Numbered from the stretch's first letter, positions 1,423 to 6,099 are shown. The stretch: 9,636 nucleotides of DNA from a virus (IMGVR_UViG_2529292736_000006), one strand, 5' to 3'. Translations and numbers: made by a program. Notes: generated from the letters alone by a model not told the origin.

Positions 1423-2489
1423 TTGATTTCAATTTTGTCCCACTCCCTGCCTCTGTCATCACGATACTGTGATGCCATGGTGTCCGACTTATGCCCGAGA
1501 AGATGTTGAGCAAATTTATCGCTTATCTGCTTCTCATAGAGTCTTGCAGACAAACTGCGCAACTCGTGAAAGGTTGGCGGATCCCCTTCGAAGGAGAGAC
1601 CTGATGCTTTTCGTGCGCGCATAAAATACCTTGATACTGTGCCGGATGAAAGCGGTTCACGACGAGTAGATGCAATTATGGTTTCTCCGCCAAGAATCTT
1701 TTTGCATTTATCAAGTGTTTCCTTCATTGATATCCCGAGAGCATCAACATGCAATGTTGTTGGGATGGCAATTTTTACGCCTGTTTTGCTTTGCTCGACA
1801 TAAAGATATCCATCTACGATATCAGACCACTTCATTTCGCATAAATCACCAACTCGCTGCCCGGTAACAACAGCCAGTTCCATTGCAAGTCTAAGCCAAC
1901 ATGGTGATGATTCTGCTGCTTGATAAATTTTCAGGTATTCGTCAGCCGTAAGTCTTGATCTCCTTACCTCTGATTTTGCAGCGCGAGTGGCTGCGACCGG
2001 GTTTGTTGTTATATGGCCTTCAGCCATAGCCTCTCGGAATGCATCGCTCAGTGTTGATCTGATTAACTTGGCTGATGCCGCCTTTCCCTCGTCTATGTAT
2101 CCATTGAGCATTGCCGCAATTTCTTTTGTGGTGATGTCTTCAAGTGGAGCATCAGGCAGACCCCTCCTTATTGCTTTAATTTTGCTCATGTAATTTATGA
2201 GTGTCTTCTGCTTGATTCCTCTGCTGGCCAGGATTTTTTCGTAGCGATCAAGCCATGAATGTAACGTAACGGAATTATCACTGTTGATTCTCGCTGTCAG
2301 AGGCTTGTGTTTGTGTCCTGAAAATAACTCAATGTTGGCCTGTATAGCTTCAGTGATTGCGATTCGCCTGTCTCGGCCTAATCCAAACTCTTTACCCGTC
2401 CTTGGGTCCCTGTAGCAGTAATATCCATTGTTTCTTATATAAAGGTTAGGGGGTAAATCCCGGCGCTCATGACTTCGCCTTCTTCCCAT
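1419..2489 (-). CDS. int: Lambda integrase Int (tyrosine recombinase, 356 aa)
   Basis: 356-aa ORF whose translation (MGRRRSHERRDLPPNLYIRNNGYYCYRDPRTGKEFGLGRDRRIAITEA...DKIEIK) I recognise as lambda Int. The stop lies 81 bp from the att core centre, as in lambda, and the start overlaps xis. Confidence 0.97.
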   Translation of the reverse strand: MGRRRSHERRDLPPNLYIRNNGYYCYRDPRTGKEFGLGRDRRIAITEAIQANIELFSGHKHKPLTARINSDNSVTLHSWLDRYEKILASRGIKQKTLINYMSKIKAIRRGLPDAPLEDITTKEIAAMLNGYIDEGKAASAKLIRSTLSDAFREAMAEGHITTNPVAATRAAKSEVRRSRLTADEYLKIYQAAESSPCWLRLAMELAVVTGQRVGDLCEMKWSDIVDGYLYVEQSKTGVKIAIPTTLHVDALGISMKETLDKCKKILGGETIIASTRREPLSSGTVSRYFMRARKASGLSFEGDPPTFHELRSLSARLYEKQISDKFAQHLLGHKSDTMASQYRDDRGREWDKIEIK

Positions 2490-2685
2490 TTCTGATCCTC
2501 TTCAAAAGGCTACCTGTTATTGGTCGATTTAAGTCAACCTTTACCGCTGATTCGTGGAACAGATATTCTCTTCCATCCTTAACCGGAGGAGGGAATATCT
2601 TGCATTCGCGCACCCATCGACGAACTGTTTCAAGGCTTCTTGGGCGTCGCTGGCGAGCGTTCCACTCCTGAAGTGTCAAGTACAT
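2467..2685 (-). CDS. xis: Lambda excisionase Xis (72 aa)
   Basis: 72-aa ORF MYLTLQEWNARQRRPRSLETVRRWVRECKIFPPPVKDGREYLFHESAVKVDLNRPITGSLLKRIRNGKKAKS, recognised as lambda Xis. Its 3' end overlaps the int start by 23 nt as in lambda. Confidence 0.95.
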   Translation of the reverse strand: MYLTLQEWNARQRRPRSLETVRRWVRECKIFPPPVKDGREYLFHESAVKVDLNRPITGSLLKRIRNGKKAKS

Positions 2686-2711
2686 CGCAAAGTCTCCGCA
2701 ATTACACGCAA

Positions 2712-2732
2712 GAAAAAACCGCCATCAGGCGG
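2712..2732 (-). terminator. Candidate intrinsic terminator between the orf55-like gene and xis
   Basis: On the minus-strand transcript: 5-bp GC stem (GCCGG/CCGCC, plus-strand 2719-2723 and 2728-2732), 4-nt loop, then a U6 tract (plus-strand A6 at 2713-2718). The stem is short and it overlaps the orf55 stop codon. Confidence 0.45.
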
Positions 2733-2892
2733 CTTGGTGTTCTTTCAGTTCTTCAATTCGAATATTGGTTATGTCTGCATGTGCTATCTGCGCCCATATC
2801 ATCCAGTGGTCATAGCAGTCATTGATGTTCTCTGCTTCGATAACTCTGTTGAATGGTTCTCCATTCCATTCACCTGTGACTCGGAAGTGCAT
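2725..2892 (-). CDS. Small hypothetical protein (55 aa), same size and spacing from xis as the 55-codon ORF I recall downstream of xis in lambda
   Basis: ATG at 2892 to TGA at 2725-2727, found by manual translation (MHFRVTGEWNGEPFNRVIEAENINDCYDHWMIWAQIAHADITNIRIEELKEHQAA). It is absent from the supplied track because it is under the length cut-off. GGAG lies 5-8 nt upstream of the ATG and the gap to the xis start is 40 bp. Confidence 0.7.
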   Translation of the reverse strand: MHFRVTGEWNGEPFNRVIEAENINDCYDHWMIWAQIAHADITNIRIEELKEHQAA

Positions 2893-2902
2893 TTATCATC
2901 TC

Positions 2903-2930
2903 CATAAAACAAAACTCGCCGTAGCGAGTT
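2903..2930 (-). terminator. Candidate rho-independent terminator downstream of the 142-aa accessory gene
   Basis: On the minus-strand transcript: 7-bp stem (AACTCGC/GCGAGTT, plus-strand 2913-2919 and 2924-2930), 4-nt loop, then UUUUGUUUUAU. It sits 45 bp after the 142-aa ORF stop and just upstream of the orf55 ribosome-binding site. Confidence 0.5.
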
Positions 2931-2974
2931 CAGATATAATTTCCACCAAAGGCAGTAGTTGCTGATGCTAAGAA

Positions 2975-3403
2975 TTATTCAATATCTATTCCTGTAATAT
3001 CTTTTATCTTTTTCCTTGCAAAGCCTTTTGCTAGTGATTTTGAAACACTTATTAGTGTACTAATTCCCTCATCCTTAAAGTTTGTTTTTATAGTTTGCCA
3101 GACCTCCTTTTGACGCAAGTCAGCAATAAAATCATGCCCTCTTGCTGTCAACCTCAGTGGTACTTCGATCCAACTATATCCAACACCTTCCCCTAACTCG
3201 TTGGACATTATATGACCGAACCCAGGTTTTCCATCAACCCTGACTATTAATTCGTAGTCGCATAATAATCGCATATGGAAAATAAAATTTTGGTCATATC
3301 TATTAAAGCCATTATCCTCTAGTTCACTAAGCATCGTGTCAGGGCCATGAGTTTTTTCGAATGCGATAAGTAGATCTTTTAGATATTGCTGGTCTAATTT
3401 CAT
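2975..3403 (-). CDS. Hypothetical 142-aa protein, AT-rich accessory gene (moron); function unknown
   Basis: ORF with ATG at 3403 and TAA at 2975-2977, with a strong GGAGG ribosome-binding site 5 nt upstream. Composition is visibly AT-rich compared with the flanking lambda-like genes. I do not recall it in lambda at this position. A tentative resemblance to small phage DUF2513-type proteins (a ...LTARGHDFIADLRQKEVW... motif) is from memory only. Confidence 0.8.
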   Translation of the reverse strand: MKLDQQYLKDLLIAFEKTHGPDTMLSELEDNGFNRYDQNFIFHMRLLCDYELIVRVDGKPGFGHIMSNELGEGVGYSWIEVPLRLTARGHDFIADLRQKEVWQTIKTNFKDEGISTLISVSKSLAKGFARKKIKDITGIDIE

Positions 3404-3413
3404 TGCCGCCTCC

Positions 3414-3425
3414 GTGACATGTCAC
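3414..3425. promoter_or_regulatory. Perfect 12-bp palindrome GTGACATGTCAC (candidate operator or protein-binding site)
   Basis: Read directly at 3414-3425. It lies in the 28-bp gap between the Ea8.5-like stop and the 142-aa gene start codon, immediately upstream of its ribosome-binding site. A 5-bp stem with a 2-nt loop is too tight for a stable RNA hairpin, so a DNA-binding site is more likely. Confidence 0.3.
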
Positions 3426-3431
3426 AGAGAT

Positions 3432-3770
3432 TTATATCATTAATTTTGTTTCGTGCCAGCCTTTGGTCACCCAGCATTGTGAGTCACCATTACACGGGCA
3501 TGAATTAACAGGAACTCTCTCGCCGCACTTACCGCAACGTTTTCTGCTGATCGATTTTATACGCCAGCGCACACGTGCATCATCCTGGCGGCTCAGTAAC
3601 GCGATGTACTCACCAAACTCGTAAGGCGCATGCCTGAAGCGGCGCGTGGCTCAGTTACGATCCAGCATTTCAATTTCCTGAGCATCAAGTACAAGCTCCA
3701 GCTTACGCATACCGGATGATGCTTGCTTGGCTCTCTGATCGACTTTGCGCTCTGCTGATGATTTAGCCAT
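3432..3770 (-). pseudogene. Ea8.5-like ORF (N-terminal helical segment plus C-terminal Cys-rich zinc-ribbon-like segment) interrupted by an in-frame TGA
   Basis: A single minus-strand frame reads MAKSSAERKVDQRAKQASSGMRKLELVLDAQEIEMLDRN, then TGA at 3651-3653, then ATRRFRHAPYEFGEYIALLSRQDDARVRWRIKSISRKRCGKCGERVPVNSCPCNGDSQCWVTKGWHETKLMI and TAA at 3432-3434. Candidate starts are ATG 3770 and ATG 3710; the latter gives about 92 codons, close to the 93-aa lambda Ea8.5. Position relative to xis/orf55 and the two-part architecture suggest an Ea8.5 homologue. This is an inference, not a sequence identification. Confidence 0.45.
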
Positions 3771-3963
3771 TCTGCTTTTCCTGCATTAGGAGAAAGACAA
3801 TCATGGCGGCGCGGATACTTCCGGTATCTTTTTACTCGATATTACCCTTCAATGGCACATACAAGAAGAGAGCCATCAACAGGAGTGAGTGAGGAATCGA
3901 CAACCAGCAACGCTTAATTATCTATAGTGTCGTATTTGCTTCATAAAATATGGCGAATAACAC

Positions 3964-3998
3964 AAAGCCCGCAGCAGCTCATTGTGCGGGCTTTTCTT
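3964..3998. terminator. Strong hairpin terminator, possibly bidirectional, downstream of the 204-aa gene
   Basis: Perfect 10-bp stem AAAGCCCGCA / TGCGGGCTTT (3964-3973 and 3985-3994) with an 11-nt loop. The plus strand is followed by CTTTTCTTAT and the minus-strand reading by UUUGUGUUAUU. It lies about 65 bp downstream of the 204-aa ORF stop. Confidence 0.5.
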
Positions 3999-4063
3999 AT
4001 ACATACTTCCTAGAGATAATTCTATGGAGGCATTAAATTAATACTGTCATTGGTAATATCATA

Positions 4064-4678
4064 TTATCTAAAAGTCTTTCCACTTTTAACGTCTAGGTAT
4101 ATTCTGTTCGACAACGTCATTCCTCCGCAATATGTGAAATAGATGTTTTTCCCCTTATTGCTTGATGCCATCCACCCTCCGATTTCCTTAAAGTCGCTTT
4201 CCGTGCAGACCCCTTCGTTTATTAACTTCCTAGCTGCCGAAGAAAACTCTTTTTTGTATATACGGTAGTCATCAGATCCTTTGATTAAAGTATCATCTCC
4301 GCTCGCATTTTCAGCAGGATCTGATGGCCTTTCACTGCTAAGATCACTAAGTTTAACCCATTCTGAAAACTTGCCATTGACGATTCCGTTTTTTCTTGTG
4401 CAGGATTTATTACCTTCTTTAATATATTCGCTTTCCCCTCCCACACATGAGGCTGAATATGGCTCAGTTATACGAACCCATTCACCTTTTTTTTCTAGAA
4501 AATCTACGCCTTCCCTGAAAAATAGTTTCCCAGCCACTCCGCATTTACTTGAAGGGCAGGTATGTCTTTCCGTTCGATCAACAACAACCCAAAGTCTTGA
4601 TTCATTTTTTGCCATTGCCGATGGTATTTGAGATGAGACAATTAACGTAAGCCCTAAAATTAGTATTGATTTTTTCAT
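4064..4678 (-). CDS. Secreted or periplasmic Cys-rich hypothetical protein (204 aa), AT-rich accessory gene (moron); function unknown
   Basis: ORF with ATG at 4678 and TAA at 4064-4066; AAGGA ribosome-binding site 7 nt upstream. The N-terminus MKKSILILGLTLIVSSQIPSAMA-KNE looks like a Sec signal peptide with an AxA cleavage motif and no lipobox Cys. The mature part has 7 Cys and the gene is AT-rich. Confidence 0.85.
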   Translation of the reverse strand: MKKSILILGLTLIVSSQIPSAMAKNESRLWVVVDRTERHTCPSSKCGVAGKLFFREGVDFLEKKGEWVRITEPYSASCVGGESEYIKEGNKSCTRKNGIVNGKFSEWVKLSDLSSERPSDPAENASGDDTLIKGSDDYRIYKKEFSSAARKLINEGVCTESDFKEIGGWMASSNKGKNIYFTYCGGMTLSNRIYLDVKSGKTFR

Positions 4679-4763
4679 TGTAATTTCCTTTTACTTTTTA
4701 CAAAGCGTTTAATCATGGCTGATTATCTTTAAGCGTAGTAACAGCCTTGTGCGAAACATGTTA

Positions 4764-4768
4764 CCAAA
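4764..4768. repeat. IS2 target-site duplication CCAAA (left copy)
   Basis: CCAAA directly abuts the IS2 terminus at 4769 and is repeated at 6100-6104. Confidence 0.85.
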
Positions 4769-4779
4769 TGGATTTGCCC

Positions 4780-5685
4780 CTATATTTCCAGACACCTGTT
4801 ATCACTTAACCCATTACTGGCCTGCTGCCGCAGATATTCCCGTGGCGAGCGATAACCCAGTGCACTATGCGGATGCCATTCGTTATAATGCTCGAACGCC
4901 TCTGCAAGGTTCTTTGCTGCCGTTAACCCGTCTGGTTTAGGCATGATACTGATGTAGTCACGCTTTATCGTTTTCACGAAGCTCTCTGCTATGCCGTTAC
5001 TCTCCGGACTCCGCACCGCCGTGTTCTTCGGTTCAAGCCCCAACATCCGGGCAAACTGCCGTGTTTCATTAGCCCGGTAGCATGAACCATTATCCGTCAG
5101 CCACTCTACTGGAGACGCCGGAAGCTCGTTGCCGAAGCGGCGTTCCACCGCTCCCAGCATTACGTCCTGTACTGTTTCACTGTCGAAGCCGCCCGTAGTG
5201 ACTGCCCAGTGCAGTGCCTCACGGTCACAGCAGTCCAGCGCGAACGTGACTCGCAGTTTTTCTCCGTTATCACAGCGGAACTCGAACCCGTCAGAGCACC
5301 ATCGTTGATTGCTTTCTTTCACGGCCACTTTGCCAGTATGTGCCCGTTTCGATGGCGGTACAGCGGTTTTTCGCTCAAGCAACAGCGCATTCTGGCGCAT
5401 GATCCGGTAAACACGTTTGGCATTGATCGCAGGCATACCATCAAGTTCGGCCTGTCTGCGAAGCAGCGCCCATACCCGACGATAACCATACGTGGGCAGC
5501 TCTCCGATAACATGGTGTATACGGAGAAGCACATCCGTATCATCTGAGTGACGGCTGCGGCGACCATCTTTCCAGTCATCGGTTCGTCTGAGAATTACGT
5601 GCAACTGCGCACGCGACACCCGGAGACAACGGCTGACTAAGCTTACTCCCCATCCCCGGGCAATAAGGGCGCGTGCGCTATCCAC
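4780..5685 (-). CDS. insD: IS2 transposase OrfB (InsD, DDE integrase-like domain; normally expressed as an OrfAB fusion)
   Basis: 301-aa ORF ([34 protein letters not shown]...NRCLEI) recognised as IS2 InsD. It overlaps orfA in the -1 frame. Confidence 0.9.
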
Positions 5686-6008
5686 TTTTTTGCACGCCCG
5701 TATTCAACGGCTTCTTTAAGGAGTTCATTTTCCATCGTTTTTTTGCCGAGCAGGCGCTGGAGTTCTTTAATCTGCTTCATGGCAGCAGCAAGTTCAGAGG
5801 CAGGAACGACCTGCTCTCCTGCGGCCACAGCAGTAAGACTTCCCTCCTGGTATTGCTTGCGCCAGAGAAATAACTGGCTGGCTGCCACACCGTGTTGCCG
5901 GGCAACAAGGGAGACCGTCATTCCCGGTTCAAAACTCTGCTGAACAATAGCGATCTTTTCCTGTGTAGTACGCCGTCTGCGTTTCTCCGGTCCTAAGACA
6001 TCAATCAT
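5643..6008 (-). CDS. insC: IS2 OrfA (InsC, helix-turn-helix regulator, 121 aa)
   Basis: [56 protein letters not shown]... with ATG at 6008. The track's 136-aa version starts at an upstream in-frame ATG inside the inverted repeat and is probably not used. Confidence 0.9.
5685..5691 (-). other. IS2 A6G slippery motif for programmed -1 frameshifting (OrfA to OrfAB)
   Basis: AAAAAAG on the minus strand (plus-strand CTTTTTT at 5685-5691) in the orfA/orfB overlap, where IS3-family elements frameshift. Confidence 0.6.
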
Positions 6009-6099
6009 CTGCTCTCCAATGACTAGTCTAAAAACTAGTATTAAGACTATCACTTATTTAAGTGATATTGGTTGTCTGGAGATTCAGGGGGCCAGTCTA

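Follow-up and report, generated by a model that had tools for sequence, protein, structure and literature searches.

A small AT-rich gene sits between orf55 and its upstream neighbour in the left arm of a lambdoid prophage, and it raises two questions: whether it is a self-contained cassette with control signals of its own, and what its product might do. We analysed the gene in a 9,636-nt stretch of viral DNA (IMGVR_UViG_2529292736_000006), referred to here as the window, which covers the left end of a lambdoid prophage that occupies the lambda attachment site beside ybhC. From the left, ybhC (1-1284), int (1419-2489), xis (2467-2685) and orf55 (2725-2892; 55 aa; phrog_676, E 1.7e-39) are followed by the gene under study (2975-3403, stop codon included; 142 aa), a phrog_536-type pseudogene (3432-3770) and a low-GC ORF of 204 aa (4064-4678), all on the minus strand. 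An IS3-family element (4780-6053) comes next, and beyond it lie Ea22-like, DksA/TraR-like, DUF1382, exo and bet genes, again on the minus strand. The pair xis-orf55 belongs to the conserved backbone of lambdoid phages, and the orf55 region shares 96-99% DNA identity with lambda, 434 and others in megablast comparisons. Over positions 2600-4000, E. coli ATCC 8739 and some 20 further complete genomes match the window with 100% identity.

Parts of this prophage are damaged. The early-left region is interrupted by the IS3-family element, in which a 136-aa HTH_Tnp_1 ORF overlaps an rve integrase-core ORF of 301 aa, and a UmuD-like gene is a pseudogene, as is the neighbouring phrog_536 gene. ATCC 8739 carries an IS1 near the same place instead of the IS3-family element, which places the window in a related strain distinct from ATCC 8739. 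The 204-aa ORF at 4064-4678 is a second cargo ORF, with a GC content of about 39% and a signal-peptide-like N-terminal segment. It gave a weak match to SH3_3, a weak lipoprotein-signal match and a full-length match to phrog_8310, a family of unknown function.

A preliminary description of the locus had reported a 142-aa AT-rich ORF at 2975-3403 and tentatively noted a resemblance to DUF2513, and the analysis bore out all of this. The ORF begins with ATG on the minus strand and has a GC content of 36.4% (GC3 31%), compared with 48.1% for the window. Its product matches Pfam DUF2513 (PF10711) with 42.9 bits against a gathering score of 29.6 (E 6.8e-11), residues 2-115 covering model positions 1-100 of 100, and it also matches PHROG 585, of unknown function, over profile positions 1-127 of 128 (E 2e-34). 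Members of both families are mostly about 130-145 aa long, the same size as the window protein, and no family-level difference separates it from them. The product is identical to RefSeq WP_000762730.1 of E. coli ATCC 8739, whose name, "DUF2513 domain-containing protein", agrees with the Pfam assignment. Judged by these matches, the gene is an already catalogued DUF2513 prophage accessory gene, annotated in RefSeq. The window protein has no match in NCBIfam and no defence-protein model match in PADLOC-DB 2.0 at E <= 1, and no paper in the searched literature mentions DUF2513 or PF10711.

The preliminary description had named two outcomes that would count against its reading, and the results went the other way on both: no match to a structural or replication protein was found, and the gene is conserved. 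All 113 close homologues are named DUF2513 and come from Escherichia, Citrobacter, Pantoea, Serratia, Pectobacterium, Yersinia, Cronobacter and other genera, with identities of 46-77% across Enterobacterales. An exhaustive profile search, clustered at 50% identity, returned 1,456 DUF2513 representatives. Between genera, dN is a modest 0.15-0.36 while dS is saturated, which indicates that the gene is under purifying selection; within E. coli, dN/dS is 0.68, a value that rests on few changes. Among the residues with the highest conservation are H43, which lies in the third helix, and the wing motif R84-L-T86-x-x-G89. This is a real, conserved and mobile single-gene accessory module.

The AlphaFold2 model of the protein, built with 35 homologues, is a confident one (pLDDT 93, pTM 0.83) and shows a MarR/PadR-like winged helix-turn-helix (wHTH); its wing is long and two-stranded, and three helices come after it. 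The topology typical of winged helix-turn-helix regulators, H1-(b1)-H2-H3-b2-wing-b3, is present in the model. Residues 1-86 form an acidic wHTH core (pI 4.8) with an extended beta-hairpin wing, and residues 87-142 form a basic three-helix tail (pI 9.5). An acidic core is unusual for a DNA-binding protein, and DNA is at most a candidate ligand. Searches of the PDB by sequence, with the single protein and two profiles, returned no relative of solved structure, and Foldseek comparisons with the PDB and BFVD gave only weak matches (E about 0.1, TM 0.35-0.45) to generic wHTH or uncharacterised proteins. The model has the fold of MarR/PadR regulators, but the protein is unrelated in sequence to MarR-, PadR- and HxlR-type regulators and differs from them in its longer wing, its acidic core and its C-terminal helices. 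Several DUF2513 relatives also match, in the same N-terminal region, the model of YjcQ (PF09639), a family of Bacillus prophage-associated winged-helix proteins; relative P0126, for example, scores 26.9 bits against a cutoff of 23.3. These matches indicate a common wHTH superfamily with phage association. The window protein itself has no YjcQ match at E <= 1, and we know of no function for the YjcQ family.

The gene had been described as an autonomous moron cassette, provided with its own terminator and inserted between orf55 and the ORF upstream of it. Morons, as found in HK97/HK022-type lambdoid phages, are extra genes that bring their own promoter and terminator. The DUF2513 gene resembles them in its deviant composition (36% versus 48% GC), in its presence or absence among related prophages and in being dispensable for the core life cycle, but differs in that its terminator-like hairpin belongs to the phage backbone and its promoter is a weak candidate only. 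Mobile accessory cargo of low GC content and patchy distribution is the part of the description that stands, whereas the autonomous layout found no support.

A hairpin with a T-run does lie downstream of the gene, 43 nt past its stop codon (2931-2912; fold centroid -11.9 kcal/mol). The 8-bp stem at 2931-2912 is followed by TTTGTTTTAT, and the whole terminator-like feature, 2902-2931 on the minus strand, is directly upstream of the orf55 ribosome-binding site. In the alignment, however, lambda and 434 are identical to it bar one stem base, and both are without a DUF2513 gene at this place. The hairpin is thus part of the orf55 backbone common to lambda and 434 rather than of any cassette, and it was ruled out as a cassette terminator. 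Past this first hairpin, lambda (29330-29373) and 434 have a second one, ATCC(C/T)CGC-N3-GCGAGGAT, which is absent from the corresponding part of the window (2936-2974). A mosaic breakpoint falls directly behind the first hairpin, at ...GAGTTCAGAT.

The low-GC cargo segment spans approximately 2936-3438, as delimited by megablast, alignment and composition: similarity to lambda and 434 stops at about 2935, and similarity to phage TL-2011b begins at about 3439. The gene does sit between orf55 and the upstream ORF, as described, but no empty site demonstrates an insertion. When 5,426 complete E. coli genomes were queried with the joined flanks, these were never found directly joined, and wherever both flanks adjoin, the DUF2513 gene is between them. 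With no genome in which the flanks meet without the gene, the region is better described as a mosaic than as the product of a simple insertion. On these comparisons, the DUF2513 gene is swappable cargo, and a self-contained cassette that brings its own control signals is not supported.

The gene that borders the cargo on the upstream side proved to be something other than the Ea8.5-like ORF of the preliminary description. BLASTP against lambda Ea8.5 gave no alignment (E <= 100), and the Yersinia relative of the upstream ORF (L008) has no match to Pfam Lambda_ea8_5 (PF20735), which lambda Ea8.5 itself matches at 1.1e-48. The upstream ORF belongs to phrog_536 ("transcriptional regulator"), with E 8.2e-19 over profile positions 69-114 of 115. 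It represents the last 46 codons (3432-3572) of a phrog_536-type gene (3432-3770, minus strand) that is broken by an in-frame stop at about 3651-3653 and annotated with an "internal stop" in RefSeq. The gene is also a pseudogene in ATCC 8739 and in phage Chlobot, and intact copies occur in Cronobacter and Yersinia prophages and in viral contigs. Proteins of this type are about 112 aa long, with the N-terminus MAKSAAERKAAQRARQ and a Cys-rich C-terminus that ends ...GWHETKL.

Only 28 nt separate this ORF from the DUF2513 ORF, and the two signals previously described here are present. The strong GGAGG (3413-3409, minus strand) precedes the ATG by 5 nt. The perfect 12-bp palindrome, GTGACATGTCAC, occupies 3414-3425, but it goes with the 3' end of phrog_536-type genes and is not specific to the DUF2513 gene. 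An imperfect version extends over 20 bp (3410-3429; 10+10 nt at 90% complementarity), and GGAGG (3409-3413) makes up the 3' arm of this extended inverted repeat. By count, the palindrome is not beyond chance, with two perfect 12-bp palindromes in the window compared to 2.2 +/- 1.5 in shuffled sequences; its conservation across genera is beyond chance.

This conservation bears on an alternative in which the gene encodes an ordinary autoregulated transcription factor. A DUF2513 dimer would bind GTGACATGTCAC and repress its own promoter, which would lie within the final 60 nt of the gene upstream; it might also repress further promoters of the phage or of the host. We regard this as unlikely, though several features are in keeping with it besides the predicted wHTH fold. 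The core GACAT(G/C)TCAC is the best-conserved upstream stretch in eight loci from six genera, and in Serratia, Pectobacterium and Citrobacter loci the palindrome remains with the DUF2513 gene although only the last 30-45 nt of the phrog_536 gene are left. In addition, a weak promoter-like sequence, (C/G)TGGCA-17 nt-TATA(A/G)(A/T), ends 5-6 nt before the palindrome. The palindrome, however, follows phrog_536-type genes whatever comes after them. In viral contigs it is found behind intact copies with at least five other, unrelated downstream genes, and in phage TL-2011b (L209:1185-1200) it is followed by terS, the small terminase gene, and there is no DUF2513 gene. More distant DUF2513 genes are without the palindrome, and it occurs only once in the window. 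A G-to-C change in the left arm (GCGACATGTCAC) has no compensating change in the right arm, and the acidity of the wHTH core also speaks against an operator-binding dimer. As the DUF2513 protein's own operator, the palindrome is therefore a weakened candidate.

Such autoregulation would need a promoter, and a consensus promoter scan of the minus strand from 2400 to 4900 found none. In the window, the weak candidate reads CTGGCA-17-TATAAA (3459-3431); its -10 element lacks the T conserved at the last position, and constraint on the upstream coding sequence confounds any reading of its conservation. A second enterobacterial DUF2513 group with about 50% identity (L004, L013, L016, L017, L019, L020) has another conserved block about 70 nt upstream, GCATTCACTGAGTGCCTGTGATAATGCTA, which contains the extended -10-like sequence TGTGATAAT and an imperfect 17-bp palindrome. 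Judging from this block, the copies of the second group may have a promoter of their own.

The occurrence of the same palindrome ahead of other genes makes it a marker of the 3' junction of phrog_536-type genes, with DUF2513 as one of several alternative cargos. The palindrome, usually followed by GGAG, lies at or just after the phrog_536-type stop codon in the window (3410-3429), in the viral contigs L091, L096, L104, L123, L130 and L160, and in L209 (phage TL-2011b). This placement suggests a conserved site of cargo exchange, or else a regulatory element of phrog_536 itself. Two other identities for the palindrome were considered and rejected. A LexA (SOS) box, CTGT-N8-ACAG, would require both outer half-sites, but the window reads CTGT-GACATGTC-ACGG, with one bad half-site, and among the loci the outer CTGT/ACAG is not conserved whereas the inner GACATGTCAC is. 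A conserved RNA hairpin was rejected because arm changes in other genera are uncompensated, which points to conservation of sequence rather than of structure. Rfam returned nothing relevant. In the window itself, the mRNA from 3395 to 3436 (minus strand) folds the extended repeat into a 9-bp hairpin (-10.8 kcal/mol, z = -2.5) in which the entire GGAGG is paired. This predicted hairpin could throttle translation of the window allele; the pairing over the Shine-Dalgarno sequence is weaker or absent in other genera.

The wider distribution of the gene fits mobile cargo. The DUF2513 segment was found in 185 of the 5,426 complete E. coli genomes, with the ORF intact in 167. A search of 50,697 phage records found the gene itself in phage Chlobot only; one Klebsiella phage and one Yersinia phage carry more distant relatives. 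Copies in enterobacteria are spread over at least three different slots of prophages. The first, used in the window, adjoins int/xis; the second is in the nin region, where the gene is flanked by a dATP/dGTP pyrophosphohydrolase-like gene and by dinI; the third immediately precedes the small terminase gene, and in L004 the copy there has the lysis genes on its other side. E. coli F5656C1 (L006:3479-6227) has a minimal prophage remnant in which int-xis-orf55-DUF2513 is intact, with an IS1 65 bp upstream of the DUF2513 gene in place of the palindrome and everything beyond it. The DUF2513 gene survives in heavily eroded prophages.

Outside phages, a relative with 44% identity is a single-gene integron cassette in Vibrio proteolyticus NBRC 13287 (L026). 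Its ORF (2110-2529) lies between VCR-like attC repeats at about 1959-2093 and 2516-2651, within an array of 10 copies spaced 430-1360 bp apart. The window contains no attC-type repeats. Several other marine or environmental loci have GTTA-type sequences just upstream of the DUF2513 gene, a pattern that could point to further integron cassettes. Across 65 loci from many phyla, no neighbour or partner gene is conserved, so the protein evidently works without a dedicated partner. DUF2513 neighbourhoods showed no enrichment of defence genes.

A possible function is suggested by rare longer relatives. Among the best 150 of the 1,456 representatives, 10 have at least 190 aa, and seven of these carry an N-terminal DUF2513 module. 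Six of the seven continue into TIR, PDC-S60 or AbiTi-like domains (P0139, P0246, P0206, P0216, P0127, P0208): two are DUF2513-TIR fusions that match the PADLOC PDC-S35, PDC-S66 and ThsB-like models, one is a DUF2513-PDC-S60-like fusion, and three are DUF2513-AbiTi/PDC-M14B-like fusions. The PADLOC models match only the effector halves, not the DUF2513 part. Such fusions are rare, and most of them are singletons from metagenomes, but one cluster of TIR fusions has six members, which come from several contigs. An architecture census of a word-indexed database with a 111-sequence profile returned stand-alone proteins only.

The arrangement of DUF2513 ahead of an effector is that of one-protein defence systems. 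For Abi proteins, it has been proposed that N-terminal modules combined with interchangeable effectors make contact with components of the phage (PMC3710099), and AbiTi, a component of the lactococcal AbiT abortive-infection system, has a predicted endoribonuclease-like domain (PMC13064643). The rare DUF2513 relatives share their N-terminal placement ahead of effectors with AbiJ-NTDs (Anantharaman et al. 2013) and with the PDC-S35/S66/S60 and AbiTi/PDC-M14B proteins. The window protein differs from AbiJ-NTD/TIR-type defence proteins in having neither an effector domain nor a PADLOC match.

The reading we favour, at slightly below an even chance, is that the DUF2513 protein is a module for recognition or regulation in conflicts between phage and host or between phages. 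It is suggested by the fusion of the N-terminal module to interchangeable defence-type effectors in rare relatives, and by the mobility of the stand-alone form, which is carried as a single gene in variable slots of prophages and in an integron. The missing PADLOC and NCBIfam matches, the neighbourhoods not enriched in defence genes, the rarity of the fusions, the acidic core and the dN/dS of 0.68 within E. coli all count against it. Under this reading, the ORF would be a functional, horizontally mobile accessory gene of the lambdoid prophage at the lambda attachment site, carried as cargo in a putative swap slot directly downstream of a phrog_536-type gene and its palindromic junction. Transcription would come by read-through in the leftward early (pL-side) operon rather than from a promoter of its own, and translation would start from a GGAGG that can be sequestered in the hairpin formed by the palindrome. 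The winged-helix module, probably dimeric, would bind one specific target, either a nucleic acid or a protein, and the protein would act alone, for example to exclude other phages or to interfere with a host system. If transcribed from pL only, the gene would be silent in the lysogen, a pattern more in line with host takeover or counter-defence than with a role in protecting the lysogen.

As it stands, the gene is an ordinary one, a catalogued DUF gene in the early-left region, a variable part of the lambdoid prophage, and the new leads are modest: the fusions to effectors, the cassette in an integron and the conserved junction ahead of the cargo. If its product is a recognition module in phage-host conflict, this would provide a function for a family with more than 1,400 representatives (50% clustering) that occurs in prophages, integrons and rare fusions. 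The palindromic junction after phrog_536-type genes may likewise mark a cargo-exchange site in lambdoid phages. The ATCC 8739-type allele offers an easy entry point because both the strain and a cultured phage that carries the gene, Chlobot, exist.

Next to this conflict module, the same evidence could describe a self-contained abortive-infection or exclusion protein, in which the wHTH senses a phage cue and a basic amphipathic C-terminal helix (114-137) is the effector, acting for instance on the membrane or on nucleic acid. The gene would suit such a role in being single, with no conserved partner, in remaining intact in prophage remnants such as that of F5656C1, and in encoding a basic C-terminal part (pI 9.5). 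A relative is an integron cassette, and integron cassettes often encode compact defence genes (bioRxiv 10.1101/2024.07.02.601686); the DUF2513 family is absent from the list in that preprint. We consider the explanation rather improbable, as PADLOC finds no match and the fusions P0127 and P0139 keep the whole tail before adding an effector, which suggests that the tail is structural.

Lambdoid early-left accessory regions are a common place for counter-defence genes, and the location of the gene in a phage early operon would accord with an anti-defence decoy. Such a protein would mimic the sensor of host DUF2513-TIR or AbiTi-like proteins and either sequester the trigger or form inactive heteromers. 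The decoy is conceivable in that relatives fuse the same N-terminal module to defence-type effectors, and the window protein lacks an effector domain. It is nonetheless very unlikely: the fusions found are rare and metagenomic, with none seen in E. coli or its relatives, and stand-alone copies are common in chromosomal integron or non-phage contexts, where a decoy has no obvious use. A broader version would make DUF2513 a dedicated phage-recognition module that hosts fuse to TIR, AbiTi-like or PDC-S60 effectors, and that phages, integrons and prophage remnants carry in effector-less form as a decoy, a dominant-negative or a portable sensor. This is a long shot of much the same order, and if true, the window gene would encode an anti-defence protein, or a sensor acting in trans, of a new kind.

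That the gene is instead a hitch-hiking or decaying passenger with no current function in the prophage is the least credible explanation, since the degraded state of the prophage (the IS3-family insertion and the phrog_536 and UmuD-like pseudogenes), the dN/dS within E. coli and the Shine-Dalgarno sequence that can be sequestered are outweighed by an ORF kept intact in 167 genomes, a family of 1,456 representatives, strong amino-acid conservation against saturated synonymous sites and a confidently predicted fold.
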